DNA of 64,000 nt from positions 872,231-936,230 of the forward strand of contig CAVZQC010000004.1 of NCBI GenBank assembly GCA_963777315.1, read 5' to 3'. The stretch comes from Vulcanimicrobiota bacterium. GTDB taxonomy: Bacteria > Vulcanimicrobiota > Vulcanimicrobiia > Vulcanimicrobiales > Vulcanimicrobiaceae. The notes under the pieces were generated by a model. It was given only the letters and a program-made list of their open reading frames with translations. It ran no database searches and was not told the DNA's origin. Position numbers and translations under genes: made by a program. Of this stretch, positions 3,674 to 47,903 are shown in pieces. Within the stretch, counting starts at the first letter, position 1. The number at the start of each line of letters is the position of its first letter.

Positions 3674-3688
3674 AGCGGGATCATGACC

Positions 3689-22278: not shown

Positions 22279-23051
22279 GATTCGGCAGCCGCTCCGCCGC
22301 GTTCGGCGATTGCCCACGCCGCAGCCGTAAGCATGAAGGCCGTGAACAGCAAAAAACCGCCCGCGATCCACATCACCGCGCCGCCGTTTTGCTGATCGGC
22401 CAATGCCAAACCGGGCGTTTGCTCCAGCAGATAATGCGGATAGAGCACTCCGCGCGCGGCGTAGATCGCAAGGCCCAAGAACGCGCCCTGCGGGATCGCC
22501 AAAAAGACGTATAACATCCGCGCCGGGAACGGCACCGGGCGCGGGACGTATCCCACCTGCACGACCACGCCCCAAAACAAAAACGCAGCCCCCAAAAACA
22601 GCACGTGCTCGACCACGTGCACGCCCGGATAGTCGAGTGCCGATTCGTACAGCGGTGAGAAATGCGATCCCCACAGCACCGCCACCATCGCCAGCCATCC
22701 GGTCAGCGGCGCAAAGATCACTTGCCCGAGGCCGCTGTGCGCGAAACCCGTAATGCGCCGGGCGACCCGCGCGGGCGGCACGGCAACGAGCAGCAGCAGG
22801 GGCGCGCCCAAAAGAATCAAGGGCGGCGCGATGAGCAGCAAAGTCACGTGCTGCACCATGTGCGAGGCAAACGAACGCTCTGCCAGCGCATCGATCGGCG
22901 GCAACAGCGCCAGCGTGAGCAGTGTGACGCCCGCGACATATGCGGCGACGCGCGCAAAAGTAAACGCGCGATCCGGAAAGCGTGCGTTATACGTTTTGAC
23001 GGCCCACAGGTACGCGGCGATCGCGCCCGTGCCCAGCGCGATTGCAATCAC
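22275..23051 (-). CDS. ctaG: Cytochrome c oxidase assembly factor (caa3-type CtaG)
   Basis: FASHMVQHVTLLLIAPPLILLGAP, HVVEH, DQQNGGAVMW. Confidence 0.88.
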   Translation of the reverse strand: MIAIALGTGAIAAYLWAVKTYNARFPDRAFTFARVAAYVAGVTLLTLALLPPIDALAERSFASHMVQHVTLLLIAPPLILLGAPLLLLVAVPPARVARRITGFAHSGLGQVIFAPLTGWLAMVAVLWGSHFSPLYESALDYPGVHVVEHVLFLGAAFLFWGVVVQVGYVPRPVPFPARMLYVFLAIPQGAFLGLAIYAARGVLYPHYLLEQTPGLALADQQNGGAVMWIAGGFLLFTAFMLTAAAWAIAERGGAAAES

Positions 23052-24412
23052 AACACCGGCTCCTCTTCGTAGCCGCCTTCGGGCGTGCGCCGCAGCCGAA
23101 CCCGCTCGGCTTGGTGCGAGCCGCCGCGGTTTTTCAACTCGGCCGCCATAGCGTAGGCGATCCAGAATCCGACGACCGGAGCGACTACGCAAAAGAACCG
23201 GTAGCCCCACACCATGTCGTTGATCGGAAGGTGCAGATACCGCGCCTGCACGTCGTCGCCTCCGGCCAAAAACAATCCGAGCATGAACAGGAAAAACGCT
23301 ACGCCCAGGCCGGTTCGAACCGGCGCGTCGCGCGGCCGGTCCAGCAGATGGTGCTGCTTATGATCTCTGCGCAGCAGCGCTTCGGCGAACGGATACGCGA
23401 ACAGCCCAAGCATAATGACGAACGGAAGAACTATGCCGGGCCAGAAGGGCGACGGTATCATGTGTCCGGGGAAGTGGATCGCCCAGCGTGGACCGATGCG
23501 CAGCGCACCCTCCAGCCAGCCGATGTACCAGTCCGGCTGTGCGGGTGAAATCGCTTTCCAGGTTTGATACGGTCCCCACAGCCAGATGGGATTGATCTGT
23601 ACGAATGCCCCCAGCGTGCAGCACACGGCAATAACGCCCATTTGCAGAGCGATCGATTTTGCCGTGTAGTGCGGGAACAGCGGCGATCCGACGACGTTTT
23701 CTTGCGTGCGCCGGGGCCCGGGGAATTGCGTATGCTTTTGGCGCCACAGGATCATCAAGTGCACGGTAATGCCCAGCGTAATGAGCATCGGCACGACGAA
23801 CACGTGCATGACGAACAGCCGCTGAATCAGAATCTCCGTCGGCCAAACGCCGCCGATCAGGAAGAAGGTCGCCCAGGTCCCGATCAACGGCAGCGACTGC
23901 AGGATCGACACCGCGATCCGCAGACCGATCCCGCTGAGCAGATCGTCGGGCATCGAATATCCGGTGAAGCCCTCGAACATGGCAGCGAACAGCAGCAGCA
24001 CGCCGATGACCCAATTCAGCTCGCGCGGACTGCGGAAAGCCCCGGTGAAAAAAATGCGGCCCATGTGCACGACGATGCCGGCTACGAAGATATTCGCAGC
24101 CCAGTGATGGATCTGGCGAATCAGCAGCCCGGCGTTGACGGCAAAGCAAATGTGCAGCACCGAATCGTACGCTTCGCTCATGCGCGTGCCGCGCAAAAAC
24201 GCGTACGGTCCCTCGTACACCACGTTGGCGTGCCCGGGGACGAACCACAACGCGAGGAACGTGCCCGTCGCCAGGAGCACGATGAACGCGTACATGTTGA
24301 TCTCGCCCAGCATGAACGACCAGTGGTCGGGAAACGCCTTCTTGAGCGCGTGATGCAAAAACGTACCGGTTCCGAACCGGTCGTCTGCCCATAGCAAAAG
24401 CCGTTGTATCAC
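23048..24412 (-). CDS. qcrB: Cytochrome b subunit of the bcc complex
   Basis: FPDHWSFMLGEI, RQIHHWAA, FRSPRELNW, GYSMPDDLLSG, QPDWY. Confidence 0.95.
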   Translation of the reverse strand: MIQRLLLWADDRFGTGTFLHHALKKAFPDHWSFMLGEINMYAFIVLLATGTFLALWFVPGHANVVYEGPYAFLRGTRMSEAYDSVLHICFAVNAGLLIRQIHHWAANIFVAGIVVHMGRIFFTGAFRSPRELNWVIGVLLLFAAMFEGFTGYSMPDDLLSGIGLRIAVSILQSLPLIGTWATFFLIGGVWPTEILIQRLFVMHVFVVPMLITLGITVHLMILWRQKHTQFPGPRRTQENVVGSPLFPHYTAKSIALQMGVIAVCCTLGAFVQINPIWLWGPYQTWKAISPAQPDWYIGWLEGALRIGPRWAIHFPGHMIPSPFWPGIVLPFVIMLGLFAYPFAEALLRRDHKQHHLLDRPRDAPVRTGLGVAFFLFMLGLFLAGGDDVQARYLHLPINDMVWGYRFFCVVAPVVGFWIAYAMAAELKNRGGSHQAERVRLRRTPEGGYEEEPVL

Positions 24413-25230
24413 GAGTGCTCCCAGAATCCCGGGCCGACGGGCTGGGGAAAATCGCCGCCGGCGCGCAGGTAGCCGTCGGCCGAAAGCTCGAGCGGCAATC
24501 GCGGCAGCGGATGGTCCGCGGGTCCCGTGACTACGCTGGCATTGTCCGCGACGTCAAAGACCGATTGGTGGCACGGGCAGATCAGACGATGATCGGCCGA
24601 GCGGTACAGCGCCACCGGGCAGCCGGCGTGCGTGCACATCTTAGAGTATGCGATCAGACCGTCGAGCGTGTTCTCGCCGACGCCGTCGGGCAGACGAATC
24701 AACACGGTCATCGATTGTGAATCGCCGATGCTGCCCTCCGGAAACACGGTAACCACGCCGTCGACGTTGACGTCGCCCGCTTTGACGATGGAACCGTCCG
24801 GGCGCTGCAGTCGCATGCCCCGCTTCCAGCGCGTGTGGAACAGCGCATCGTCGGGCTCGGGCCCGAGCGACCCAACCGGGAACAGCGCCGCCAGCCCAAA
24901 TAGGCCGGCTGCGCCGTACAACATGCGCGTGAGCCAGGTGCGGCGCGTGAGCTGCGCGATGCCGTGCTCGTAGGCCTCGACCATTTGGGCGCGTTCTTCC
25001 ACGGGCTGCGGATACGTGTCGCGCAAATCCACGACTTGCTCGTGCGTGAGGATCCAGCGTGCCCAGCCCAGCGCGGCAATCATGAAACCGGCAAAAACGA
25101 CGGCCAGCGCAAACCCCTCCCACTGGATGCTCATCTGCTTGGCGAACGCAATCATGAAGCCGACGCTGCCCGCCATGGAGAGCAACAGGGCGGCCGCTAT
25201 TGCGCGCTCGCGAACGTTGGGCTCGTTCAT
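24409..25230 (-). CDS. qcrA: Rieske iron-sulfur subunit of the bcc complex
   Basis: CTHAGC and CPCHQS Rieske motifs, three N-terminal TMs, C-terminal PVGPGFWE. Confidence 0.93.
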   Translation of the reverse strand: MNEPNVRERAIAAALLLSMAGSVGFMIAFAKQMSIQWEGFALAVVFAGFMIAALGWARWILTHEQVVDLRDTYPQPVEERAQMVEAYEHGIAQLTRRTWLTRMLYGAAGLFGLAALFPVGSLGPEPDDALFHTRWKRGMRLQRPDGSIVKAGDVNVDGVVTVFPEGSIGDSQSMTVLIRLPDGVGENTLDGLIAYSKMCTHAGCPVALYRSADHRLICPCHQSVFDVADNASVVTGPADHPLPRLPLELSADGYLRAGGDFPQPVGPGFWEHS

Positions 25231-25796
25231 CGGATCCAGTACACCGTGGAGTAAATACCGAACCACATTACCGTCACGAAGTGCCAGTAGTAACTAACGG
25301 CTTCGGCCCCGCCGTGCTGGTCGGCGCGGAACGTGGGCGAACGCAGGCCCAAATACAAGCCGAGCAGCATGATCACGCCGACGACGACGTGCAGCAGGTG
25401 AAAGCCGGTGATCGTCAGATAGGTTGCGGCGTAGGCGCCGGTATGGAAGTTGAAGTTTTGGCTGGAGTATCCGTGCATCGCCACGCCGATGTAGCCCAAT
25501 CCCCCGACGATAGCGCCGTACAGCCACCCGTAGGCGGCTTTGAAATTGCGCCGGCGCAACGCGCGCAGCATCGGAAACATCATCAAACTGCTGGAGATCA
25601 GAAATGCCGTGCCGAACGCCGGCCCCAGTTCATCCAGATGAACGTACGGCGGAGGCCAGACCGCACTGGTGGATTTGAGATCGTAGTACGTAGCGAAGAG
25701 CGCCGAAAAGAACATCGTTTCCGACGCGATGAAAATGACGGTTCCCAGCACCACCGGGTGAGCGCGGTACGACAGCGGCAATTCGTGACGCGCCAA
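25227..25796 (-). CDS. ctaE: Cytochrome c oxidase subunit III
   Basis: FIASETMFFSALF, TGFHLLHV, YYWHFV. TTG start with AAGGAG RBS. Confidence 0.92.
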   Translation of the reverse strand: MARHELPLSYRAHPVVLGTVIFIASETMFFSALFATYYDLKSTSAVWPPPYVHLDELGPAFGTAFLISSSLMMFPMLRALRRRNFKAAYGWLYGAIVGGLGYIGVAMHGYSSQNFNFHTGAYAATYLTITGFHLLHVVVGVIMLLGLYLGLRSPTFRADQHGGAEAVSYYWHFVTVMWFGIYSTVYWIR

Positions 25797-25848
25797 TGCG
25801 AGCACTCCTTTCGTGCAAGCCGATTGCGGCTTTTGTACCCGAGCGAAC

Positions 25849-25876
25849 GGTTTCCTATCGGATATTGCGTGGGTAA
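25849..25876 (+). promoter_or_regulatory. Putative SigB/SigF-type promoter for ctaCDF
   Basis: GGTTT-N17-GGGTAA, 12 nt upstream of the ATG. A GGGTAC on the minus strand (25840-25835) may serve ctaE. Confidence 0.5.
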
Positions 25877-25888
25877 GTAGCGCACGAC

Positions 25889-26548
25889 ATGCCGATTCTG
25901 AATCCGGCCTCGGTTCAGGGATGGGACCTTCGCGGCGTTTGGTACATCTTCTTCGGCGCCGCAATGTTCATCGCCGTCATCGTTTACGGGCTGATCTTCC
26001 TCGTTCTGGTGCTGTGGCGAAAACGCCGCAACGACGACGGTTCCCTGCCGCCCCAGTTCCACAGCAATCCGGGTATCGAGATCACGGGCGTGGTCGTGCC
26101 GCTCATCATGGTGATCGGTTTGTTTTACGTCACGTACATCCGCGAAGGCGTCGTCGACTTTCTGCGGCCCAACCCGTACGCGGTCGTCGACGTGACCGGG
26201 TACCGCTGGGCCTGGCAGTTTCGCTATCCCGGACATCACATTACGATCAACGGCACCTCGCACAATCCGCCGGTGCTGGTCATGCCGCTGGGCAAGATGA
26301 CGCAGATTAACTTGTACTCATCGGACGTCGTCCACTCGTTCTGGGTTCCGTCGTTTCTGTTCAAGCGCGATGCAACGCCGGGATACACGCAGCACTTTGA
26401 CGTTACGCCCAGCCAAACCGGAGAATTCCACGGCTTGTGCGCGGAGTATTGCGGGTTGAATCACGCGCTGATGACCTTCACCGTGAAGGTCGTTCCGGCG
26501 GCGGACTACAACCGATGGCTGGCTTCCGGGGGAGCCGCGACGGTATGA
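25889..26548 (+). CDS. ctaC: Cytochrome c oxidase subunit II
   Basis: Two TMs, GYRWAWQFRYP, DVVHSFWVP, CuA motif CAEYCGLNHALM. Confidence 0.95.
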   Translation: MPILNPASVQGWDLRGVWYIFFGAAMFIAVIVYGLIFLVLVLWRKRRNDDGSLPPQFHSNPGIEITGVVVPLIMVIGLFYVTYIREGVVDFLRPNPYAVVDVTGYRWAWQFRYPGHHITINGTSHNPPVLVMPLGKMTQINLYSSDVVHSFWVPSFLFKRDATPGYTQHFDVTPSQTGEFHGLCAEYCGLNHALMTFTVKVVPAADYNRWLASGGAATV

Positions 26549-28131
26549 TCTATCGCCTGACCTCGACCAATCACAAATCGATCGGCATCCTCTATATTTC
26601 CACGACGTTCTTCTTTTTCGTGGTCGCCGGCATTCTGTCGCTGCTCATCCGGCTTCAGCTGGCGCACCCCGACAACGCCGTTCTCACGCCGCACTCGTAC
26701 AACGAAATATTCACTCTTCACGGAACGGCAATGATCTTCTTGGTCATCGCGCCGTTTGCGTTCGGTCTGGGCAACTATCTGGTGCCGCTGCAGATCGGCG
26801 CGCCCGACATGGCGTTCCCGCGCCTGAACCTGCTGGGCGTGATGCTCTTCATCATCAGCGGCTTCACCATCTTCGCCGGCGTGTTCGCCCAGGGCGGAGG
26901 CGCCTCGGCCGGTTGGACGGCCTATGCGCCGCTTTCAGAGATACAGAACGGCACGGGCGCGGGACAAGATCTCTGGATTATCGGCCTGCTCATCAACAGC
27001 GTCGCGACGATTATGGTGGCGATCAACTTCGTGGCGACCATTCTGCTCTATCGCGCGCCCGGTATGACGATGTGGCGCATGCCGATCTTCACTTGGGAGA
27101 TGCTGGCGACCTCGCTGCTGATTCTCATGGCGTTTCCGCCGCTGGCCGCGGTGCTGAGCGAACTGCTGCTCGCGCGCCATTACGGCGCCCACTTTTTCGA
27201 TCCGCAGTTCGGAGGTAACGCGATCCTGTATCAGCACCTCTTTTGGTTTTTCGGACATCCTGAAGTCTACGTCATGATCCTGCCGTATTTCGGCGTGGTG
27301 ACCGAAGTCGTTTCGGTGTTTTCCGGCAAGCCCGTCTTCGGTTACGTCGGCCTAGTGCTCTCGGCTTTTGCGATTGCCGGACTGTCGATGGGAGTTTGGG
27401 CGCACCATATGTTCGCAACCGGAGCGGTCGCGAACGGATTTTTCTCGGGCATGTCGTTTTTGATCGCCGTTCCGACCGGGGTGAAGTTTTGGAACTGGAT
27501 CGGCACGATGTGGCGCGGCAAGATTCGGCTGACGACGCCGATGCTCTTTACGATCGGATTTTTGTTGAACTTCCTGATCGGCGGCGTGACCGGCGTTATG
27601 GTTGCATCGCCGCCCATCGACTACCACGCCGAGGACAGCTACTTTTTGGTTTCGCACTTCCACTACGTGCTCGGGGGCGGATCGATGTTCGCCGTCTTCG
27701 CAGCGCTCTTTTTTTGGTGTCCGAAAATCTTTGGGTTCAAACTCAACGAAACGCTGGGGAAGATCACGTTCTGGACGATGTTCGCGGGGTTCAACCTGAC
27801 CTTCATGCCGATGTATTTCATGGGGATCGAAGGCATGCCGCGGCGGGTGTTCACCTATCCGGCTACCGGCGATCTGCCCTGGCTCAACGCGCTTGCATCC
27901 GTAGGCGCGGGGATCATGACGCTCGCGGTCATCGTATTCGTTCTGAACGTGATCGTTTCAAAATTGGCGCACGAGAAGGTTGCCGACGATCCGTGGGGCG
28001 GCGCGTTTACGCTGGAATGGGCGACGTCTTCGCCCCCGCCGGAGTTCAATTTTCACGCCCTGCCGCCCATTCGCTCCGAGCGGCCGGTGTGGGACTTGCA
28101 CAACCCCGAGTACGCGCAGCAGAAGGCATGA
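26545..28131 (+). CDS. ctaD: Cytochrome c oxidase subunit I (A1 type)
   Basis: HGTAMIF, DMAFPRLN, YQHLFWFFGHPEVY, VWAHHMF, HFHY, GMPRR. Confidence 0.97.
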   Translation: MIYRLTSTNHKSIGILYISTTFFFFVVAGILSLLIRLQLAHPDNAVLTPHSYNEIFTLHGTAMIFLVIAPFAFGLGNYLVPLQIGAPDMAFPRLNLLGVMLFIISGFTIFAGVFAQGGGASAGWTAYAPLSEIQNGTGAGQDLWIIGLLINSVATIMVAINFVATILLYRAPGMTMWRMPIFTWEMLATSLLILMAFPPLAAVLSELLLARHYGAHFFDPQFGGNAILYQHLFWFFGHPEVYVMILPYFGVVTEVVSVFSGKPVFGYVGLVLSAFAIAGLSMGVWAHHMFATGAVANGFFSGMSFLIAVPTGVKFWNWIGTMWRGKIRLTTPMLFTIGFLLNFLIGGVTGVMVASPPIDYHAEDSYFLVSHFHYVLGGGSMFAVFAALFFWCPKIFGFKLNETLGKITFWTMFAGFNLTFMPMYFMGIEGMPRRVFTYPATGDLPWLNALASVGAGIMTLAVIVFVLNVIVSKLAHEKVADDPWGGAFTLEWATSSPPPEFNFHALPPIRSERPVWDLHNPEYAQQKA

Positions 28132-28559
28132 AAACGTTCGTCGGGCTGTTCTTCAGTTCGGCCGTTTTCGGCGCGACGATTTCCATCGTCTACTGGTTTG
28201 CCTCGCGCGACTACGCCGGAACGCTTATGCTGGGTTTCATGTTTTGCGGTTTGGGCTTTGCGGCGGGCTACGCTATGCTGGCCGAAAAACACTCCAATCT
28301 CGAGGGCGACGATCCCAAACTGCAGCACAAGGCCGCCGCATCGCAAGACGTGGGTATCGTAACGAAGGAAACGCCCTGGCCTGCCGCGCTTGCGTTTAGC
28401 ATTCTCTGGTTCTTCATCGGCCTCGTGTGGTCGGATTTCATGCTCTTTACCGGCATTGCGGCCATACTGCTGTGCCTATGGCGTCTGGGAGCCGAAAGCG
28501 CTCGCGTCGGCGAGCAAGAATCCGGGATGATCGACGAGCATTCCCGCCGGACCCGGTAG
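28128..28559 (+). CDS. ctaF: Cytochrome c oxidase subunit IV (actinobacterial CtaF-like)
   Basis: Small ~4-TM ORF (MKTFVGLFF...DYAGTLML...TPWPAALA) with ATGA overlap on ctaD. Confidence 0.72.
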   Translation: MKTFVGLFFSSAVFGATISIVYWFASRDYAGTLMLGFMFCGLGFAAGYAMLAEKHSNLEGDDPKLQHKAAASQDVGIVTKETPWPAALAFSILWFFIGLVWSDFMLFTGIAAILLCLWRLGAESARVGEQESGMIDEHSRRTR

Positions 28560-30725
28560 CGCCCGCTCGGGACGCTCACTGCTGCTCGTAATGCGCTCTA
28601 TCGAACCGATGAAGCCGGCAGCGGCAAACGCATCCCCCTGCAGCGTCTGCGCGACCTGCGCGCGCGCGCTCGCTGCAGGCGGCGCGGGATATCCGTCGCA
28701 GCGCGAAGCCGAGATAAACCCGAACGACTGTGCCTTGCGCAAACTCCACCACCGGCGAACGTTGTCGGAGGTGCCGTAAACGACTTCGTACTGCAGATCC
28801 GGTTTTTCGACGCCCAGTTTGACGAGCTGCACGAAATCGGCGGGGCTGAGCCAAATCCCTTCGTCGACCGGATGCTCGGGTTTCGCGCACACGTGGCCGA
28901 TGCGAATGCAGAAGATCTCCAATCCGTATTTGTCGGCGTACAGCCGCGCGAGCGCCTCACCGAACACTTTGCTGACGGCATACAGTCCGTCCGGACGCAG
29001 GGGTGCCGTTTCGTCGATCTTCTGCTCGCGCGGATAGAAGCCCGTAACGTGGCCCGTGCTGGCAAAAATCACTCGGCGCACGCCTTCCAAACGCGCTGCT
29101 TCCAGCACGGTGTACGTGCCCCGAACGTTATGATCCAGCAGTTTGTCGAAGGGCGCCTCTTTCGAGATTGCGCCCAAGTGCAGCACCGCGTCCATGCCGC
29201 GCACCGCTTTGCGCATTTGACGCAGGCGCCGGATGTCGGCGCGTACGAACTCTTCGCCGGGAAGCGGATTCGCAACCGGCCCGACGTCGCTCGATCGCAG
29301 CGCGTACAGTTGGCTGAGCGGCTTGCGGATGAGCGTGCCCACTGCGCCGCCGGCGCCGGTGATCAGCAAGCGCGGCCGGCCATTGGCCGGCATCGGCGCA
29401 GGCTTGGGCGCGCGCTTGCGCCTGCGCGCGAGCAGATCCTTGAGCACGTTGCGGAAGGCTCGCAGATCTTGCCGGCGCACGACCCAAACCGCCGACGGCC
29501 GGTATCCGCTCAGCCGGCAGAACCACCACGTGTTGAACGATGCCCCCACCAGATACGTCGCACTCGATGCCAATGCTGCGCCGGCCATTCCCATGCGCGG
29601 AACGAGCACCACGCAGCCGGCGACTTGCACCGCAATCATCGCCACATTCACGACCGTCACGATGAGCGGCCGTCCAATCTGGAAGAGAAAGAACGCTGCG
29701 AACGTTCCGGCCGAGGTAAAGGCGACGATGCCGGGCAGCAGCCAGCGCAGCGGCGCCGCAGCTTCGGAAAAGCGCGTGCCGTAGATGTGGTCGATCAGCC
29801 ACGGTCCGGCGATGAACGATACGATCGACGCGCACGCGGCAACCGCGACGGATATGCGAATCGTTCGCGCGGAAATCTCCGCCGAAGTTCCGCGATCGCT
29901 TCTGCCGATCTCTCGAGTCACGGCCGCGGTGACGGGCCGCGTGAGCATGAACAGCATCTCGCCGAACGATACGGCAATCGAATAGATGCCGAACGATGCG
30001 AAACCCAGCATTCCGACGAGCACGAGCGAATCGACGCGATAATTCAGCACTCCCAGCGCGGAGTTGAGCGCGGACTGTCCCCCCATCCTCACGACGTCGT
30101 GAAGTTGCCTGCGCAAGTCCGTGCGGTGCAGGCGCCCGCCTTGACGCACGGCATCGACCACGACGATCGCCGCGAAAGCGTACGTAACGGCGATCCACGC
30201 GCCCAGCACGCCCGCAATTCCGGCATGCGCAACGAACAGCGCTGCCGCAACCGCCGCAAGCGTTGCGGCCGAGACCGCCACGGTCTGATAGTTCATGCGC
30301 TGCATGCGTCCGGTTGCGATGTAATATGCCGGCTGCCACGCAAAGAGGATTGCGCCCGGAGCGACGGCGACTATCGCGATCGTGACGACCGTCCAGCCGC
30401 GCAGCGCGCTCCAAACGATCATGCCGGCCCATAAAGCTGCCGTCAGCGCGAGAAACGCAACGGTGAGCGCGGGAAACAGCTGTCGCATGTTTCGGCGCTC
30501 CTTGGTCATCAAGAAGACGATGGCCGCGCCCGCGCCGCTGCTGACCGCCAGCGGAACGGCCAGCATGGTTTGCACGCCGCTGTACACGCCTTTTCCGGCC
30601 GGGCCGAGCATCTTGGCGATGATGATGCCGACCACGACGCTGAGCGCGACGCCGGCCGTGCGCGCAACGAACGTGCCTATCGCATTTGCGCCGATCGTGC
30701 GCGCGTCCGCCGGTGCGTCGCTCAT
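28476..30725 (-). CDS. Wzx/MOP-type oligosaccharide flippase fused to an NAD-dependent epimerase/uronate-dehydrogenase-like domain
   Basis: N-terminal multi-TM region with AKMLGPAGKGVYS, LNYRVDSLVL, GIYSIA, LVPRMGMAGAALAS. C-terminal ITGAGGAVG, NVRGTYTVLEAA, LYAVSK. Confidence 0.82.
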   Translation of the reverse strand: MSDAPADARTIGANAIGTFVARTAGVALSVVVGIIIAKMLGPAGKGVYSGVQTMLAVPLAVSSGAGAAIVFLMTKERRNMRQLFPALTVAFLALTAALWAGMIVWSALRGWTVVTIAIVAVAPGAILFAWQPAYYIATGRMQRMNYQTVAVSAATLAAVAAALFVAHAGIAGVLGAWIAVTYAFAAIVVVDAVRQGGRLHRTDLRRQLHDVVRMGGQSALNSALGVLNYRVDSLVLVGMLGFASFGIYSIAVSFGEMLFMLTRPVTAAVTREIGRSDRGTSAEISARTIRISVAVAACASIVSFIAGPWLIDHIYGTRFSEAAAPLRWLLPGIVAFTSAGTFAAFFLFQIGRPLIVTVVNVAMIAVQVAGCVVLVPRMGMAGAALASSATYLVGASFNTWWFCRLSGYRPSAVWVVRRQDLRAFRNVLKDLLARRRKRAPKPAPMPANGRPRLLITGAGGAVGTLIRKPLSQLYALRSSDVGPVANPLPGEEFVRADIRRLRQMRKAVRGMDAVLHLGAISKEAPFDKLLDHNVRGTYTVLEAARLEGVRRVIFASTGHVTGFYPREQKIDETAPLRPDGLYAVSKVFGEALARLYADKYGLEIFCIRIGHVCAKPEHPVDEGIWLSPADFVQLVKLGVEKPDLQYEVVYGTSDNVRRWWSLRKAQSFGFISASRCDGYPAPPAASARAQVAQTLQGDAFAAAGFIGSIERITSSSERPERALPGPAGMLVDHPGFLLADASAFGSQTP

Positions 30726-31840
30726 CGGCGATACCACGACGGACAACCGGCCGCCGCGAGTCCTGTGACGAGGCGCCCGGCCGTTTTCATTCCCGTAAGC
30801 ACCCGGCCTTTTGCGCTCCGATCGGCCAGCACCGCATTGGGAACGGCCAGCCGAGTCGACGGCCCGAGCACGCGGCCGCCGTTGCCGAACCAGGCGTCCG
30901 TAAATTGGGCGCGCGCCCGCAGGTACGCCGGAAGCGCCTCTCGGCGCATCGTCCACGATACGAATCGCTCGACGGCGGCGTCCGTCGTAATCTCCACTCC
31001 CGCCATGCGCGCGGCCAGCGCTAAAACCCCTTGCGTGCCGATCGGCTGAATCCGTTCGTTCGCAAGCTGCGACTGCAGCGCCCCGACGAGCTGCGGATCG
31101 GCGCGAAGATCCATGGCGAGCAGCACGGCATCGTAAATGCGGTACAAGCCCGCTCCGTGCAGCACCATGTGCAGTGCGCGCGCAAATGCGTCCAGCCGAA
31201 GCGTCGGCCCCGCCGCACCGTCGACTTGCTCGAAATGGCCGCACAGCGCCGGCCAATCCGTCTGCAGAGAAAACCATCCGGGCGGAGTGAGCGCGACGTG
31301 CAGCTCGACGCTTTTGCCTGCGCCCGGAGCGACCAGCGGAACCAGATGGTGATGGCGGCGCGCATACGAGTCGAATGCGAATGCCGTGTCCCTTTCGGGG
31401 CGATAGCCGCAAGCGGTCAGCGCTTCGAAGGCCGCCATCGCTCGTTCGCGCGGAACGAGCACGTCGAGGTCCAAGATCGTGGTCCACTGCGCCATCGGAT
31501 CGCCCGCGTACAGCCGCGCGCCGGTTTTGAGCAGTGCGTGCTGGATGCCCGCGCGGTTGAATTCGCGCACGACGTCCGCCAGCTGCGCGCCGATCGAAAA
31601 GCTTTGGACGATCGCGCTCTGCGCGTGCGGCTTGAGCATCGTCAGCAGCGGCGCCAGCGATCGGTCGCGAAGCTTGGCGGCGACGATCCCGTGGGAAAGC
31701 ATTCCGGCGCATTTGTGACGGACCGCTTGCGAGAACAGCCGTTCGTGGGAAACGTTCCTGAGCGCGGCGTCAAGCCGATTGGGCTGCTCCTGAACGATGG
31801 CCGTCATCGCTTCGACGAGCGTTTCGAAGGCGCTCTTCAT
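30722..31840 (-). CDS. Nucleotidyltransferase family protein (type associated with lasso/PqqD clusters)
   Basis: AGIQHALLKTGA, LDLDVLVP, VELH motifs. ATGA overlaps on both sides. Confidence 0.82.
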   Translation of the reverse strand: MKSAFETLVEAMTAIVQEQPNRLDAALRNVSHERLFSQAVRHKCAGMLSHGIVAAKLRDRSLAPLLTMLKPHAQSAIVQSFSIGAQLADVVREFNRAGIQHALLKTGARLYAGDPMAQWTTILDLDVLVPRERAMAAFEALTACGYRPERDTAFAFDSYARRHHHLVPLVAPGAGKSVELHVALTPPGWFSLQTDWPALCGHFEQVDGAAGPTLRLDAFARALHMVLHGAGLYRIYDAVLLAMDLRADPQLVGALQSQLANERIQPIGTQGVLALAARMAGVEITTDAAVERFVSWTMRREALPAYLRARAQFTDAWFGNGGRVLGPSTRLAVPNAVLADRSAKGRVLTGMKTAGRLVTGLAAAGCPSWYRR

Positions 31841-32331
31841 CGTGAAACCCGCTCTGCAGCGATCGGAATTTCGCGGATACGTCCCTGCACAACGGCTTGC
31901 GGCCCTTCGAGCACCTTTCCGTGTAGCGTTACCCAAGCATGGCCGCGCAGGCGCTCTTCGAGCCGGTCGCGATGCTCGATTCCGAAGTGCACGCCCAACG
32001 CGGCATCGTCGGCATCCAGGAAACGGTACAACGTGAGCGCGCGCACGTAACACGTGTTGTGCCGTGCGAAGATCGGAACGCGCAGACAGAGCGCGCGCAG
32101 GCGCGCGATGCGTTCGTAGGAAAGCCGCGGCGACTTTACGATACGCCCTCGCGCCGCACGCAAATTTGCCAGCGTGATGCGAAGATCGCCGCTGCGCAGC
32201 AGCGCCGGAACGGCCGCGATGAAGGCTCCCACGTGCAGCGCGAGCAGCAAGTCGGAAGGTTCGTGCACGAACACGCGCAGGCGCTGGTAGAATCCGAGCG
32301 GCGTCCATTTGTTCGCCATACGCGCTACCAT
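31837..32331 (-). CDS. Lasso peptide biosynthesis B2-like transglutaminase-fold cysteine peptidase
   Basis: TCYVRALTLYRFL...VHFGI...LRGHAWV, the Cys/His signature of B2 leader peptidases. Confidence 0.85.
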   Translation of the reverse strand: MVARMANKWTPLGFYQRLRVFVHEPSDLLLALHVGAFIAAVPALLRSGDLRITLANLRAARGRIVKSPRLSYERIARLRALCLRVPIFARHNTCYVRALTLYRFLDADDAALGVHFGIEHRDRLEERLRGHAWVTLHGKVLEGPQAVVQGRIREIPIAAERVSR

Positions 32332-33197
32332 CGCCGCCGCTCGCGAAGGTTATAGTATGCGCGCAAAAAGCCCGCATGCTGCGCCGCTCCTCGAACGAAC
32401 CGGCCGCGCCGCGCGAGCGCCGCATCTCCTTTGCCCGGAAGCGCGGCGGCGGCGGCTTGCCATGCGAGCTCGCCCAGCGCGCGCAGCTCCTTGTGAACCG
32501 TCCAGCTCGTTTCATTGTGATACGCGAGCATGAACTGCGCGTACCCTATGCCGTAAAAGTATTGCTGGCGCCAGTATTGCCCCCACTGCGCGCGGTGCCG
32601 GTGCAGTACCAGCGCGCGGGGCTCGTACGCAAATGCGTTGCCGTAGCGTCTTCGCAGCCGCGTATGCAAATCGCAGGCGTCGTACGTGGTGTAGCGCTCG
32701 TCGAAACCGCCGGCCTCCAGCAAGCAATCGCGGCGGTAAACGATATTGGCCGAGGGAGCAAACGGATACGTCGGATGCGCGAGATGGCGGCCGGCGTCCA
32801 AACCGCCCATGAGGTCGACGAACCGCGCCGCCGGGGTGTGCGAGTCGATGCCGACGGTTTTGCCGGCAGCCCCCAAGGATGCCCGGTCGGCGCACGCCGC
32901 CAGCAGTCGCTGCAGCCACGCGCGTGAGGGCACGCAGTCCGCGTCGGTGAACGCGACCCATTCGCCGCGCGCCTCTCGCATGCCGCGGTTGCGGGCCGCG
33001 GGCGCGCCGCCGTTGCGCTGCGAGATCAGACGCACGTCGAAATGCCGCGCGACGTCGGCGGTCCGGTCGGTGGACCCGTCGTCGACGACGACGATCTCGA
33101 ACTCGCTGCATGTCAGCGTTTGGGTTTTCAAGGCGCGCACGCACGCCGCCAGCGTGCCGGCGCCGTTGTAAACCGGAATCACGACCGAGGCCTTCAC
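32325..33197 (-). CDS. Glycosyltransferase family 2
   Basis: SVVIPVYN, VVVDDGSTD, AARNRG, FTDADCVP. Start is GTG 33197 or 33203. Confidence 0.9.
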   Translation of the reverse strand: MKASVVIPVYNGAGTLAACVRALKTQTLTCSEFEIVVVDDGSTDRTADVARHFDVRLISQRNGGAPAARNRGMREARGEWVAFTDADCVPSRAWLQRLLAACADRASLGAAGKTVGIDSHTPAARFVDLMGGLDAGRHLAHPTYPFAPSANIVYRRDCLLEAGGFDERYTTYDACDLHTRLRRRYGNAFAYEPRALVLHRHRAQWGQYWRQQYFYGIGYAQFMLAYHNETSWTVHKELRALGELAWQAAAAALPGKGDAALARRGRFVRGAAQHAGFLRAYYNLRERRRW

Positions 33198-34096
33198 GTC
33201 CACACCCTGCGGCGGCGCGTGCGATACGCCGCCCAAAAGCCCAGCCAAAAGTTGCGCGTCCACAAGCTTTGGTAGTGAAAGAACTCCAGACGATCGCCGG
33301 CACCGCTGCCTGCCGCAGCTGCAATGCGCGCGAAGACCGGGAGCGTAACGCGGCTTGCGAGCATCCAGGCCAAATGCGCGCTCTTGGCGAGATCCCAACG
33401 CAATTCGTCGGGATAGCGCCGATACAGGTCGGCGGCTCCTTCGCCGTACGTCCAAGCCTGACGCGCGAGCGCGTCGTCCGTCGCACGAGTGCGGTGGTAC
33501 AGCACGGCACGCTCGGCGTACGCGATCGGCGTGCCGTATGCGCGCAGAATACGATGCGAAAAATCCACGTCTTCGCCCGTGGACAGATCTTCAGGCCATG
33601 CACCCACCGCAAGCGCCGCTTCACGGCGCACCGCCAAATTCAGCGACGGCGCGAACGGAAACGGCGTACGGCGTATCGCGCGCAGCGTGTCGTACAACCC
33701 CGACGCCTGAACGTAACGTTCGGCGGGAGTACTGGGCGGATAGCACAGGGTGTTGCCTGCTACCAACGCCACGCTCGGATCGGAAAACGGCACCAGCATT
33801 TCGCGCAGCCACCGGCGGCTTGGAACGGTGTCGGCGTCGAGATGCGCGACGATCGAACCGCGTGCGGCGCGCAGACCGCGGTTTCGCGCCGCCGACGGCC
33901 CACGGGTGGTTTCGACCAGCACGGCGGCACCCAGACTGCGCGACACGGCGCCCGTGGCGTCGGTCGACCCATTGTCGACGACGATCAGCTCGAACTGCGG
34001 AGCACCGGCTTGTGCACGCAGCGCCTTGAGGGCTTCGCCGATTGTGGCCGCGGCGTTGTATGCGGGAATGACCACGCTGACGATCGGTTCGGTCAT
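33194..34096 (-). CDS. Glycosyltransferase family 2
   Basis: SVVIPAYN, VVDNGSTD, GPSAARNRG, HLDADTVP, GEDVDF. Confidence 0.92.
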   Translation of the reverse strand: MTEPIVSVVIPAYNAAATIGEALKALRAQAGAPQFELIVVDNGSTDATGAVSRSLGAAVLVETTRGPSAARNRGLRAARGSIVAHLDADTVPSRRWLREMLVPFSDPSVALVAGNTLCYPPSTPAERYVQASGLYDTLRAIRRTPFPFAPSLNLAVRREAALAVGAWPEDLSTGEDVDFSHRILRAYGTPIAYAERAVLYHRTRATDDALARQAWTYGEGAADLYRRYPDELRWDLAKSAHLAWMLASRVTLPVFARIAAAAGSGAGDRLEFFHYQSLWTRNFWLGFWAAYRTRRRRVWT

Positions 34097-35085
34097 AGCA
34101 CTGCATGCTCGAAGATCGGCAGCCAGGCGCGATCGCGGTAAGCATCGTCGCCGACTTCAAAGATCACCCCGCGCAGAGTCGCCGCACAGCGCGCGGCGCC
34201 TTGCAGAATTTCGCGCGCCGCGTCGCGGTCGTTCGGCATGACGATCTGCTTGAGCAGAGTGGGCAGCACTTCGCCCGATTCCATGGCCGTTGCGCGCGCC
34301 GGCTGCGCGGCGCCCTCACGCACGATGCGTACGATGTGCGTGGCCACGGCGTCGGCGATCGCGCCTCCCGGCACGATGCTCTCCACGCCGACGCGCCGCT
34401 TTTCAGTCCATGCCGAGTAGCGCGGCAGGTCTTCGAGATCGTCGATTGCGGAAAACCAGGAAGCGGTGCGCGGGTGAAGGTTGAACGTTTGCAGTAATCC
34501 GATGAGGTGCGATGACTGCAGCCCTCGTCCCAGCAGCAGCTTGTCGTCGCCCAGCGTTTGCCAGCCGTTGCACAGCAGCGCCGTCGTCAGCGTGCTTTTG
34601 CCCCCGCCCGATGGAGCGCACAGGATCGCGCACCGCCCATCTTTGGCAACCGCCGCACCGTGCACCGGCACGAATCCTTCGCGGCGCCAGCCCACGGTGC
34701 ACGCCAGGCCGAGCAGATCTTCCATGTCGCCGATCTCCGGCTCTCCAAAGCGCAGATCCGGTGGAACGGCAATTTTCCAGCAATCCGATTCAGCTGTGCT
34801 GCACGCGGCCGTTATGCCCGATGCCGTCGATGCGACGTACGCATCGCCGTCGCGGTCCACGTTCATACGGGCGCATCGCAGAAACGAACCGGCTGCGCGC
34901 GCACCCTTCGAACCGCGCGCGATCCACACGTCCACTCGACGGCGAGCGCGCATGCGCGCGCTTCCGAACAAGTCCAAATTCTGCAGCGCGACGGCGGCAA
35001 GCCGGTCGTCGCCGGTGTGCACGATCACTTCCAATGGACCGCAATAGCGCGGCTGCATCGGCGTGACGCGCTCGCGGGCGATCAT
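34093..35085 (-). CDS. HPr-kinase-like P-loop kinase (lasso-peptide kinase type)
   Basis: VHGAAV, Walker A APSGGGKST, GDD motif. Confidence 0.8.
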   Translation of the reverse strand: MIARERVTPMQPRYCGPLEVIVHTGDDRLAAVALQNLDLFGSARMRARRRVDVWIARGSKGARAAGSFLRCARMNVDRDGDAYVASTASGITAACSTAESDCWKIAVPPDLRFGEPEIGDMEDLLGLACTVGWRREGFVPVHGAAVAKDGRCAILCAPSGGGKSTLTTALLCNGWQTLGDDKLLLGRGLQSSHLIGLLQTFNLHPRTASWFSAIDDLEDLPRYSAWTEKRRVGVESIVPGGAIADAVATHIVRIVREGAAQPARATAMESGEVLPTLLKQIVMPNDRDAAREILQGAARCAATLRGVIFEVGDDAYRDRAWLPIFEHAVL

Positions 35086-35091
35086 GTTGCG

Positions 35092-35502
35092 CTACTCGGC
35101 TAGGGGAATGCTGGGATCGAAGGCGCTGGTGACGAGCGTTTGCAGCGGCTGCGCTTGGCGCTTCATCTCCGGCGCGACCCACGGCTGCGCTTTGTGCCCC
35201 GCTGATGCTTGCGCCGTGGGCGCTGCCTCCACCAAATTCTCGCGCTCGAGCTCGGCCAAGAATTGACGCACGGAACCGTCGTTTGCGGGCGCTCCCCACA
35301 GGCAGCACTGCTGCTCGATTTGCTCTGCGGTCGCACCGTCGGTTTCGAACAATTGCGTGATGGCCCACGCGCCGGCGTTGAGATGATAGAAATACTTGGT
35401 TTCGAGATCGAGGAGAACGGCGCCGTCTTCAACCACCGTCGCCACGACGGTCGGCCGCAATACGAATCCCCCTGTTTCCACAAGCGCACAAGAAACCGCC
35501 AC
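35092..35502 (-). CDS. PqqD-family RiPP recognition element (RRE) with a C-terminal precursor-like extension
   Basis: EDGAVLLDLETKYFYHLNAGAWAI...VRQFLAELERENLVE is an RRE fold. It is followed by an Ala-rich linker and PWVAPEMKRQAQPLQTLVTSAFDPSIPLAE. GAGG RBS before the GTG. Confidence 0.85.
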   Translation of the reverse strand: MAVSCALVETGGFVLRPTVVATVVEDGAVLLDLETKYFYHLNAGAWAITQLFETDGATAEQIEQQCCLWGAPANDGSVRQFLAELERENLVEAAPTAQASAGHKAQPWVAPEMKRQAQPLQTLVTSAFDPSIPLAE

Positions 35503-35548
35503 GTTGTCTTACCTCGCCTCTTCGTCCGAATGGTTTTGAATTGCACTT

Positions 35549-35554
35549 ATTATA
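35549..35554 (-). promoter_or_regulatory. Putative sigma70 -10 box for the RRE operon
   Basis: Perfect TATAAT on the minus strand ~47 nt upstream of the start. No convincing -35. Confidence 0.45.
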
Positions 35555-35692
35555 GACCGGGCGGCGAACCCGCATCAGTAGCGCGCGGCACCGTCCCGCT
35601 AGGACGGGCGACCCAGCAATAAGCACGAGGTTCCTGCGGAACGGACCATCGCTTCGACCGGAGAAGCGGGTCGAGGGTAGAAACGGTCGTTC

Positions 35693-38446: not shown

Positions 38447-39589
38447 TCATGCTGATGCCTCGTATGCCCAGCGCATGATGCCGCCGGCCAGCACGCGGTG
38501 CTCGAGCGGGTGCAGGCGTTCGACGATCGCTTCCTGCGTTTCGCCGTCGGCCAGCGCCAGCGGTTTGCGCACCAAAATCGGACCGCGATCGGCCTGCGGC
38601 ATCACGCGATGGCACGACGCGCCCACCCAGCGGCTTCCCCACGCGAGCGCGTCCGCAACTGCACGCGCGCCGCGAAATGCCGGCGTCGTCGAGCCGTCGG
38701 GATAAGTAACCTCGTCGGCAAGCGGATCGAGCGGCAAGAATGCCGGATGAATGTTGATCGTTTCGGGCAGCGAGCTGATGAACCGGTGTTCGAGCAGATG
38801 CATCCATCCGAGCAGCAGCACGAGGTCCGGTTCCTCGCGCCGGACGAGGTCGAAAAGCGCCGCATCATACTGCCCCCGAGACTGCGCGGTCCGATCCCAG
38901 GGCAAGGCGACGGCGTGGATGCCGGCGTCTCGCGCTCGCTGCAGCGCGTAAGCCGCGGCGTTGTTGCTAATCAGCGCGGCAATGCGCAGCGGAAGACGGT
39001 TCGCGCGAGCACCGTCGACGACCGCTTGAAAATTGCTGCCGTTTCCCGAAGCAAGGACGACCGCGCGATGCAATGGTCGCCGCCATAACGCTTTATCGAA
39101 TGTTTCCGCGATAACGGCGGCGCAATGCCGCTCGTAATACGCGATGAGCTTTTCGTGTCCAACTGCCGGTATCAGTGCGCGAGCGTAACCCAAGTGGGCC
39201 AGCGACGCAAGGGCAGCGATCAAGAGATGCGGGCCTATTCCCGATCCGCGAAATTCACTCGCGACGCCGAAGGGCCCGAAAATGCCTACCTGCGGCGCGC
39301 GCCCCAACCCGTTCAGCCAGGCAAAGCGCAATCCACGCGGATCGTAGCTCGCAAATCCGGCAAAACGGCGCCCGCGCATGGCCACAACGCTGCTTGCGGC
39401 ATAGGCTTCCGAGCTCCACGTTCCCCCGAATTCATCGTCGAGCCACGCCAAAAATTCACCGCTTCCGGGCGTAACTCGCTCGAGCGAAAACCCCGCATCT
39501 TCGATCGCGCCGGCCGCTTTCGCATACCGATCCTCACCGAACTGCCCGTTCTGCAGTTCGACCACCAGATTGACCATCGCATCGGTCAT
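38447..39589 (-). CDS. purN: GNAT acetyltransferase fused to phosphoribosylglycinamide formyltransferase
   Basis: N-terminal FGPFGVASEFRGSGIG (GNAT motif A). C-terminal VLASGNGSNFQAV, LLGWMHLL, INIHPAFLP, DRGPI. Coupled to purM. Confidence 0.85.
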   Translation of the reverse strand: MTDAMVNLVVELQNGQFGEDRYAKAAGAIEDAGFSLERVTPGSGEFLAWLDDEFGGTWSSEAYAASSVVAMRGRRFAGFASYDPRGLRFAWLNGLGRAPQVGIFGPFGVASEFRGSGIGPHLLIAALASLAHLGYARALIPAVGHEKLIAYYERHCAAVIAETFDKALWRRPLHRAVVLASGNGSNFQAVVDGARANRLPLRIAALISNNAAAYALQRARDAGIHAVALPWDRTAQSRGQYDAALFDLVRREEPDLVLLLGWMHLLEHRFISSLPETINIHPAFLPLDPLADEVTYPDGSTTPAFRGARAVADALAWGSRWVGASCHRVMPQADRGPILVRKPLALADGETQEAIVERLHPLEHRVLAGGIMRWAYEASA

Positions 39590-46729: not shown

Positions 46730-47903
46730 GGCAGGTCTGATCATTCAGGCGTTTACTCGACGACTTGCCGCGGAATCTGGGATTTTTGAGATATTTTCTC
46801 CATTTTCTGCCTCTCGCGCCCGGTTTTCCTGGACGAGAGCATGTTTGTTCTGACTTCGAGAGACAATTATCCGGTCGAAAAGTGTCGCAATTTCTTTTTC
46901 GACATGAACAAATTGGAGAGCGCGAAGAGCACGTTCAGGCAGTTTTCGTTTTTTGTTAACCCGCGATAACGCACTTTCTTGAATCCGAAGTATCCTTTGA
47001 CGGTTCCGAAAATATGCTCGGCTCGCGACCGGATCGAGGATTTGCGCCGATTCGTCTCGCGGTCCCGACCGGTCAGCGGGCGATTGCGGTAGGCGCGTTT
47101 GCTGATGAACGCCCGTGCCTGCGGCGACTTCTCGCGGATCGCCTTGGTTTTGCCGGTGTAGGCCGAGTCACCGTAGACGCGCGTTCGCTACCGTGCAGCA
47201 ACTCGGCGACGACCTTGCTATCGTGGACGTTGGCGGCGGTGGCCACGATCGAATGAACCAACTTGGTGCAGCTGTCCACCCCGATATGCGCCTTCATGCC
47301 AAAGAACCATTGGTTACCCTTCATCGTTTGATGCATCTCCGGATCCCGTTCGCCGCGTTGGTTCTTGGTCGAGCTGGGCGCGTGAATGATCGTCGCGTCG
47401 ACAATCGTACCGCCGCTAATCGTGATGCCACAATCCGCCAGATACTGGTTCACTCCAGCAAAAAGCTTCTTGCCCAGGTCATGCCTTTCCAGCAAGTGGC
47501 GAAACTTGCAAATCGTGGTCTCATCCGGAACCGGAGCTTCGCCCAGGTCGATCCGCGCGAAGGCGCGCATCGAGAGCATATCATAGAGCGACTCCTCTAC
47601 GGCCGGGTCACTCAGGTTGAACCACTGTTGCAAAAAGTAGATGCGCAGCATTGTTTCAAGATCGATCGGCCTACGACCAACACCCTCTCCCTTGTAATAG
47701 AACGGCCTGACGATTTTGCGCAAGCGCTTCCAGGGAACAATGCGATCCATCTCTTGCAAGAACTTCGTGCGTCGCGTCGTCTTGGAATGACGCTCGAAAT
47801 CCGTGGTAGCCAAGGTCATCTGCTCTTGCATGCTCATAGGATGATGATAGCTTGAACCGGGGCGTAAGTCGATCCCCTTGGCCGGAAATAAATCGGACCT
47901 GCC
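46730..47903 (-). mobile_element. IS5-family insertion sequence (1174 bp) with 12-bp terminal inverted repeats and a 4-bp target duplication
   Basis: Ends GGCAGGTCTGAT (46730) and GGCAGGTCCGAT (reverse complement ending 47903). ATAG flanks both sides (46726-46729 and 47904-47907). Confidence 0.9.
46867..47837 (-). pseudogene. IS5-family DDE transposase with one base missing near 47184
   Basis: LQQWFNLSDP, PDETTI, VDATII, FGMKAHIGVD. After the shift, manual translation gives VYGDSAY...RSRAEHIF...KVRYRGLTKN...STG*. Confidence 0.88.

Follow-up and report, generated by a model that had tools for sequence, protein, structure and literature searches.

What is the product of an operon that carries the accessory enzymes of a phosphorylated lasso peptide cluster and no lasso cyclase? 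The question is raised by seven minus-strand genes in a 64,000-nucleotide stretch of the genome of a Vulcanimicrobiota bacterium (contig CAVZQC010000004.1, positions 872,231 to 936,230; this whole stretch is called the window). In order of transcription, the genes encode a PqqD-like protein that contains a recognition element (RRE) for peptides that are made on the ribosome and modified after translation (RiPPs), an HprK-like kinase, two GT2 glycosyltransferases (GT2a and GT2b), a lasso B2-type peptidase, a nucleotidyltransferase (NTP transferase) of the NTP_transf_5 family, and a fusion of a flippase with a dehydrogenase. A preliminary description had interpreted this module as a cyclase-free, linear RiPP-glycan hybrid pathway. 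The gene content of the module and its conservation across phyla support that interpretation, which underweighted the point that the substrate would be the RRE protein's own tail. Our data indicate that the module is real, widespread and intact, and most likely a cyclase-free RiPP pathway with an RRE-fused precursor, apparently undescribed in this form. We infer all of the chemistry, and give a probability of about 0.5 to a linear 12-residue phospho-glycopeptide as the product, with the precursor located in cis on its own RRE.

The C-terminal tail of the RRE protein

The preliminary description had reported no free-standing precursor peptide in or beside the operon. None is indeed free, but the RRE carries a precursor-like segment fused at its C-terminus. 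The alignment of the best 120 of 254 homologs gave the C-terminal consensus W-x-x-P-x-[IVLM]-x-[RK]-[QH]-x-[EQ]-P-L-Q-x-[VIL]-[VIM]-x-S-A-F-D-P-S-[IVL]-P-L-[AV]-E, and the mean column conservation was 0.63 for the RRE, 0.31 for the linker, 0.67 for the leader and 0.92 for the last 12 residues. The terminal Glu was present in all 120 homologs, and in the 118 that match the pattern the Trp lies 29 residues before the C-terminus, with Val, Ile or Leu at W+15. The tail codons vary synonymously, and therefore selection acts on the peptide; the stop codon immediately follows the Glu in 102 of 103 loci. The sister clades described below also keep D129 and the terminal E136 without variation.

Duan et al. 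describe YxxPxL at positions -17 to -12 and Ile or Val at -2 in phosphorylated lasso precursors (PMC10368454). A [Y/W]xxPx[L/I/V] leader motif with Thr, Ile or Val at -2 is found here as a fused segment. In the canonical -17 register, L123 falls at position -2 and the core would be T125-E136. The linear polyphosphorylated peptides (LPP) of Bacillota have Tyr at -16 and Ser3 (PMC13381572); if that register is applied to the tail, Ser3 would map to S126, and alternative registers are possible. The candidate phospho-acceptors are S131 and S126, of which S131 is favoured by comparison of the loci. In the structure model, residues 113-116 of the tail form a strand with a predicted local distance difference test (pLDDT) score of about 80, and the WxxP leader is modelled as folding back into the RRE cleft. 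RRE-leader complexes are the closest matches by fold.

The tail is present in one copy in the genome. The other PqqD-like gene (G000:C2:582886-583083, locus L026) is a stand-alone, tail-less gene located between transketolase-like and ABC solute-binding genes, and no RiPP genes were recognised when its neighbouring open reading frames (ORFs) were read by eye. Another tail-less relative (L084) was recovered through the RRE-domain pattern, and a protein atlas search returned PqqD-family clusters only. A small-ORF motif scan for a free precursor yielded 5 candidates within the window and 76 across 57 GTDB loci, none of them convincing; besides internal starts of the tail itself, no candidate in the window or the 57 loci recurs at the module. 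As a separate observation, two genomes have, a few kb upstream of the module, small ORFs that combine a YxxP leader with a Cys-rich core (L047:4178-4273; L050:3434-3571 and 3680-3826), and these look like free precursors of another RiPP type.

Enzymes of the module and their conservation

The domain identities given in the preliminary description hold in Pfam and NCBIfam searches, with the RRE identified by its fold and the kinase by its motif. Curated cut-offs were passed only by the B2 peptidase (NF033537 and PF13471), the NTP transferase (PF14907), the GT2s and the epimerase-family domain, and the PF13471 and PF14907 matches are the only ones in the genome. The RRE protein scored 23.2 bits against PqqD (PF05402), just under the cut-off of 23.4; its identity stands because the fold match confirms an RRE, the model (pLDDT 83.9) being closest to TbiB1 in complex with a leader peptide. 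The kinase identity is confirmed by a conserved motif, which agrees with that published for BsfK (PMC10368454), and by a profile match to HPr(Ser) kinases (E 0.002). Matches to the HPr-rel-A cassette (TIGR04352/TIGR04353), which has no assigned function in its library description, were weak and far below both cut-offs for the kinase (HprK-related TIGR04352, E 2e-12) and the PqqD-like protein (E 0.055).

Both GT2s match PF00535, and their top NCBIfam model is MftF (TIGR03965), with scores of 163 and 179 against a cut-off of 280. In a quick tree, GT2a and GT2b fall into separate clades, each spanning phyla, which suggests that the two enzymes carry out two different steps. This tree is without shown support values and the RRE tree is a quick version with few columns, and neither was used for the direction of gain or loss. 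The N-terminal half of the last gene product has a MOP fold (model pLDDT 86.9) that best matches WzxE (template modelling score 0.71-0.75), with MATE and MurJ proteins close behind, and a homolog of this flippase gives a weak Polysacc_synt match. The C-terminal domain is nearest to uronate dehydrogenase (E 2e-53). The catalytic residues of the module enzymes are intact across the homologous loci.

Conservation was analysed in 57 GTDB loci and 51 metagenome loci (108 in all), of which 104 have a readable tail and 54 have at least 5 kb of downstream sequence. The hosts of the GTDB loci belong to Vulcanimicrobiota, Chloroflexota, Pseudomonadota, Gemmatimonadota, Actinomycetota, Acidobacteriota, Thermodesulfobacteriota, Myxococcota and others. 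Among the 49 loci with Ser or Thr at position 131 and at least 5 kb downstream, which come from about eight phyla, each of four components, namely the kinase, the B2 peptidase, the NTP transferase and one or more GT2s, was found in 48; 42 have at least two GT2s, and none has a cyclase. The recurrent cyclase-free co-occurrence expected from the preliminary description is present in the homologs, with the six core genes together across phyla and a cyclase at 0 of 104 loci. The NTP transferases form three sequence clusters and their position in the locus varies, which suggests that the function was kept while the gene was swapped.

The exporters are more varied. The flippase clade of this operon occurs at 16 of the 57 GTDB loci, a second Wzx-like clade at 8, and other Polysacc_synt proteins at 3 of those scanned further, giving Wzx-type flippases beside 27 of 57 in total; ABC-2 pairs occur in 7 loci, and an ABC membrane-type exporter adjoins locus L078. 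Where no contig end truncates the flippase (15 homologs), the dehydrogenase is fused to it in 6. The preliminary description had assigned export to a Wzx-type flippase. The repeated recruitment of several Wzx types agrees with this assignment, while the flippase and its fusion to the dehydrogenase are accessory and ABC exporters are found elsewhere. Other neighbours in the 57 loci include AGE-family epimerases (7), GT-C/PMT-like proteins (4) and GT4 proteins (6). Gfo/Idh/MocA and sulfotransferase genes are also found as neighbours.

Within the phylum the module occurs in 19 of 301 genomes, this one included, and 20 of 21 matches run to the end of the tail, the exception (G007) being an orphan without neighbour genes. 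In a genome of the same genus (G001), the ctaF stop lies about 18 nucleotides from the tsaD start with no module between, and therefore the module is a presence/absence unit. The ctaF C-terminus is not the same as in G001, which would be expected had the module edge rewritten the junction; no boundary repeats or target-site duplication were seen at the module edges. In two genomes the module is present twice (L064/L042 and L065/L047), and the second copy has its B2 peptidase and a GT2 several kb upstream of the RRE. In L082, L083 and several MFD-series loci, many frameshifts, probably sequencing errors, split the module genes.

Two sister clades carry related tails. The Q131 clade ends in PFDPQLPLAE, without a hydroxyl at position 131, and its operons encode the RRE-tail protein, three or four GT2s and one or two NTP transferases, often with Gfo/Idh/MocA proteins and 2-hydroxyacid dehydrogenases. 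The third, or PIPE, clade (SPFDPTVPIPE) has the kinase, one GT2, the B2 peptidase, a GT4 and the NTP transferase. Where at least 700 nucleotides of downstream sequence were present, the kinase was found at 69 of 71 S/T131 loci and at 3 of 13 Q131 loci, and two kinase-bearing loci have Asn126 and Thr131; S131 is favoured as the phospho-acceptor because the kinase tracks the hydroxyl at 131 and is kept at these two loci.

Further RRE-tail families were also seen. In one of them the tail reads LLLDPIH(D/E)VD..GWP (P0192, P0209, P0221, P0233, P0237-P0239, P0242, P0259, P0261; L095:5896-6360). A member in a distant cassette on a Crinalium plasmid is followed by genes for an NTP transferase, an HPr kinase, an FkbM methyltransferase and glycosyltransferases; a uronate-dehydrogenase-like gene is close by, and neither a B2 peptidase nor a cyclase is annotated. 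Other RRE proteins, some with two RREs, have a tail of the YxxP...D...LALDPP type (P0165, P0166, P0180, P0185, P0198, P0213, P0223, P0236).

The predicted pathway and competing explanations

The HprK-like kinase would act first and phosphorylate a tail serine, most likely S131. Phosphorylation of a precursor serine before cleavage is described for LppK in LPP (PMC13381572) and BsfK in Bsf (PMC10368454), and the order given in the preliminary description, with the B2 peptidase acting first, is unlikely in view of these relatives. The NTP transferase and the two non-redundant MftF-like GT2s may then build a short glycan on the phosphate or the tail, by analogy with PsmN and MftF: PsmN is required for hexoses on phosphoserine, with D134/D136 needed for hexosylation (PMC6993621), and MftF oligoglycosylates a RiPP-derived cofactor (PMC7491314). 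The B2 peptidase would cut near L123-V124|T125 and free the linear 12-residue phospho-glycopeptide; each RRE protein would be used once. The uronate-dehydrogenase-like domain may tailor or supply a sugar. Export of the glycopeptide, or of a membrane-linked form, by the Wzx-like flippase is the least certain step of the proposal.

Several observations weigh against this pathway. A secreted RiPP would not usually have so invariant a core, and the cores of LPP vary greatly (PMC13381572). The homolog sets were gathered by shared words or by the tail motif, which inflates the apparent invariance. In several sister tails, residue 127 is Pro and residue 125 varies, so that the sequence alone does not fix the cut site. 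The preliminary description had placed both the B2 peptidase and the kinase in the pathway; this agrees with 48 of the 49 long S/T131 loci, but in the long loci of the Q131 clade the B2 peptidase is found in 0 of 5 and the kinase in 1 of 5, and release and phosphorylation are therefore not universal. The Q131 loci form a single clade, so that the co-variation of the kinase with position 131 amounts to about one event. At L096-L098 a kinase lies beside a tail without Ser or Thr, with intact kinase motifs in L098, and L040 has S131 with neither kinase nor B2 peptidase within 10 kb. Several loci show no adjacent exporter, and Wzx-type flippases normally move lipid-linked glycans.

The operon might instead be the decaying remnant of an ordinary phosphorylated lasso cluster whose cyclase is elsewhere or lost, a reading that is largely refuted and very improbable. 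The RRE, the B2 peptidase with its catalytic Cys and His, the HprK-like kinase and the PsmN-like transferase are indeed the accessory set shared by pseudomycoidin (psm, PMC6993621), paeninodin and Bsf (PMC10368454), and Bsf also shares the leader spacing and Ile/Val at -2. The module differs from these clusters in its dedicated GT2 pair and in the absence of a free precursor, of a cyclase and, in the likely registers, of a ring-forming Asp or Glu. At core positions 7-9 no such residue is present for core starts 124-127, and D129 would fit only starts 121-123. As the preliminary description had stated, no lasso cyclase lies in or beside the operon. In the genome, which is 89.9% complete, the lasso cyclase model NF033535 had no match and the only PF00733 match is short, in an ORF read as MnmA from its sequence. 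A cyclase profile, built from eight asparagine-synthetase-family proteins rather than verified lasso cyclases and able to recover held-out family members, found none in the window, at the 57 GTDB loci or at any of the 104 tail-bearing loci. Host genomes were searched for 50 of the 57 GTDB loci: PF00733 had no match in 9 (one of them a single-chromosome assembly), short N-terminal matches only in 15, and long asparagine-synthetase-family matches elsewhere in 26. One of the 15 (G080, locus L048) is unpublished; it is one row in the tallies and no conclusion rests on it. The incomplete genome and the 26 long matches leave the remnant reading some room, but the 24 genomes without a long match, and the intact and conserved state of all the genes, argue against it. 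A remote cyclase was rejected on the basis of these searches of the genome, the host genomes and the loci.

It is possible, if less likely than the phospho-glycopeptide, that the RRE-tail is a protein primer or carrier: a glycan would be built on it, at phosphoserine, Asp129 or Glu136, before transfer to a lipid or surface acceptor and export. The kinase and the B2 peptidase would then be optional linkage or release steps, and the latter might act as a transpeptidase. A tentative form of this idea is that the tail is a self-recognising primer: the enzymes of a RiPP pathway would have been co-opted to initiate and extend an oligosaccharide on a conserved peptide, before flipping or transfer to the cell surface. 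Only the RRE-tail, the GT2 and the NTP transferase are common to all three clades; D129 and E136 are invariant where both serines are not; and the Wzx-type flippases, the sugar-enzyme neighbours (AGE epimerase, GT-C/PMT-like, GT4, Gfo/Idh/MocA and sulfotransferase) and the Crinalium cassette, in which no B2 peptidase is annotated, would also fit. Against this, the main and PIPE clades keep the B2 peptidase with intact Cys/His in 48 of their 49 long loci, and the leader spacing is of the cleavage type. Nor does the module have a recurrent polymerase, ligase or lipid-priming enzyme, though three priming transferases (PF02397) lie elsewhere in the genome, far from it. Moreover, the Q131 loci are metagenome contigs, and the B2 peptidase could lie elsewhere in those genomes. 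It is rather doubtful that the tail is only a docking or regulatory element, with the kinase and the NTP transferase making an NDP-sugar, the GT2s building a small or lipid-linked glycan, and the peptide absent from the product. The kinase beside the hydroxyl-free tails of L096-L098 would be explained in this way, and the very high conservation also fits a binding motif. The co-occurring uronate-dehydrogenase-like, AGE and Gfo/Idh/MocA families act on free sugars. The pseudomycoidin authors also allow for PsmN producing a substrate that a glycosyltransferase of the host would use (PMC6993621). On the other hand, the kinase has the full BsfK peptide-kinase motif and the HPr(Ser) kinase profile match, its presence tracks S/T131, and a retained leader peptidase would be unexplained. 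The phospho-glycopeptide remains our preferred product.

Layout of the module and its place among known systems

The ORFs and junction sequences bear out the seven same-strand genes of the preliminary description, with, in order of transcription, a 6-nucleotide gap and then overlaps of 4, 4, 7, 4 and 4 nucleotides; the coordinates are given in Table 1. The RRE-tail protein has 136 residues counted from a GTG, and its true start is not certain. The flanks also agree with the proposed boundaries, which are cytochrome oxidase subunit IV (ctaF) and a gene called tsaD-like on the basis of its sequence; the flippase-dehydrogenase ORF (28476-30725) and the end of ctaF, which is convergent with it, overlap by 84 nucleotides (28476-28559). 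The guanine-cytosine (GC) content of the module is close to that of its surroundings. No sigma-70-like promoters were found at the operon (1.3 expected), terminator-like sites there were fewer than in shuffled sequences, and blastn found nothing common to the upstream DNA of 54 homologs.

Table 1. Coordinates of the module features in the window.
Feature	Position	Strand	Basis or remarks
RRE-tail protein	35092..35502	-	PqqD-like RRE at about residues 15-92, variable linker, precursor-like tail
Leader-like segment	35131..35181	-	Residues 108-124: W108-x-x-P111-x-[I/V/L/M], V/I/L at residue 123
Predicted core T125-E136 (TSAFDPSIPLAE) and stop	35092..35130	-	Column conservation, codon variation
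HprK-like kinase	34093..35085	-	Motif H142, G160-G162-K163-S164, D180-D181
GT2 glycosyltransferase a, MftF-like	33194..34096	-	D87-x-D89
GT2 glycosyltransferase b, MftF-like	32325..33197	-	D85-x-D87
Lasso B2-type transglutaminase-like cysteine peptidase	31837..32331	-	C94/H131/E142 conserved
NTP_transf_5 (PsmN/LppN-like)	30722..31840	-	Conserved DxD, D124/D126 from ATG
MOP-fold, Wzx-like flippase domain of fusion protein	29424..30725	-	Structure model, fold match
Uronate-dehydrogenase-like extended short-chain dehydrogenase/reductase domain of fusion	28476..29390	-	Domain/sequence match
Whole module as presence/absence unit between ctaF and tsaD	28560..35692	.	Comparison with genome G001

Elsewhere in the window, positions 23048-28559 hold an actinobacterial-style cytochrome bc/aa3 block (cytochrome b, Rieske protein, oxidase subunits I-IV, with CtaG upstream), named partly from sequence. 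A GNAT domain joined to a formyltransferase (PurN-like) domain is encoded at 38447-39589 (minus strand), beside a purM-like gene, and a transposase (DUF772 and DDE_Tnp_1) at 47076-47837 (minus strand), in the part of the window where GC content is lowest.

Among known systems, the cyclase-free LPP family of Popov et al. 2026, whose final product is given as unknown, comes closest (PMC13381572). Cyclase-free clusters of RRE, HprK-like kinase and NTP transferase near polysaccharide genes are therefore already published, and the module shares with them this enzyme combination, the [Y/W]xxP leader and the adjoining polysaccharide genes. The LPP clusters have a free precursor with a variable core, a discrete RRE, a signal-peptidase-I-like protease and an MsbA-like exporter; none of these was found in the module, in which the peptidase is of the B2 type and all seven genes are otherwise assigned. 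The module also differs in its RRE-fused precursor, near-invariant core, two core GT2s, mostly flippase exporter and other host phyla. Mycofactocin (PMC7491314) resembles the module in being an RRE-dependent peptide pathway with dehydrogenases nearby and in the MftF matches of the GT2s, but these matches score below the cut-off, and the seven genes include no radical S-adenosylmethionine (SAM) gene of the MftA/MftC type or other redox-cofactor maturase. A mycofactocin-like redox-cofactor reading was dropped, as no maturase for a redox group recurs. With regard to Wzx/Wzy loci, the MOP fold is present, the PF02397 genes are distant and there is no polymerase among the seven genes. In borosins, the substrate peptide is likewise fused to a biosynthetic protein, a methyltransferase; the fused partner is not an RRE, and the chemistry is unrelated.

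An RRE-fused precursor with a B2 peptidase, a GT2 pair and a flippase was found in no description in the mostly open-access literature searched, and the RRE datasets of the LPP study and RRE-Finder could list members. Among PF05402 proteins, 21% exceed the size of a discrete RRE without another domain (PMC12710340), and the RRE-tail proteins would fall in this oversize single-domain bin.

The end product of the HprK-like kinase and NTP_transf_5 pair, and the reason for its location near polysaccharide genes, are questions raised by the LPP and pseudomycoidin papers, and the module offers a compact test case for them. LppN was silent in a heterologous host, which its authors attribute to a missing partner (PMC13381572); here the likely missing partners, two GT2s, are hard-wired together with the substrate in one 7-kb unit. 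A primer role of the tail would also explain what the kinase and the NTP transferase are for where, in lasso and LPP clusters, they occur as orphan pairs next to capsule loci. RRE-fused precursors would escape precursor mining based on small ORFs, and since more types of RRE-tail were seen, this architecture may be a general blind spot.

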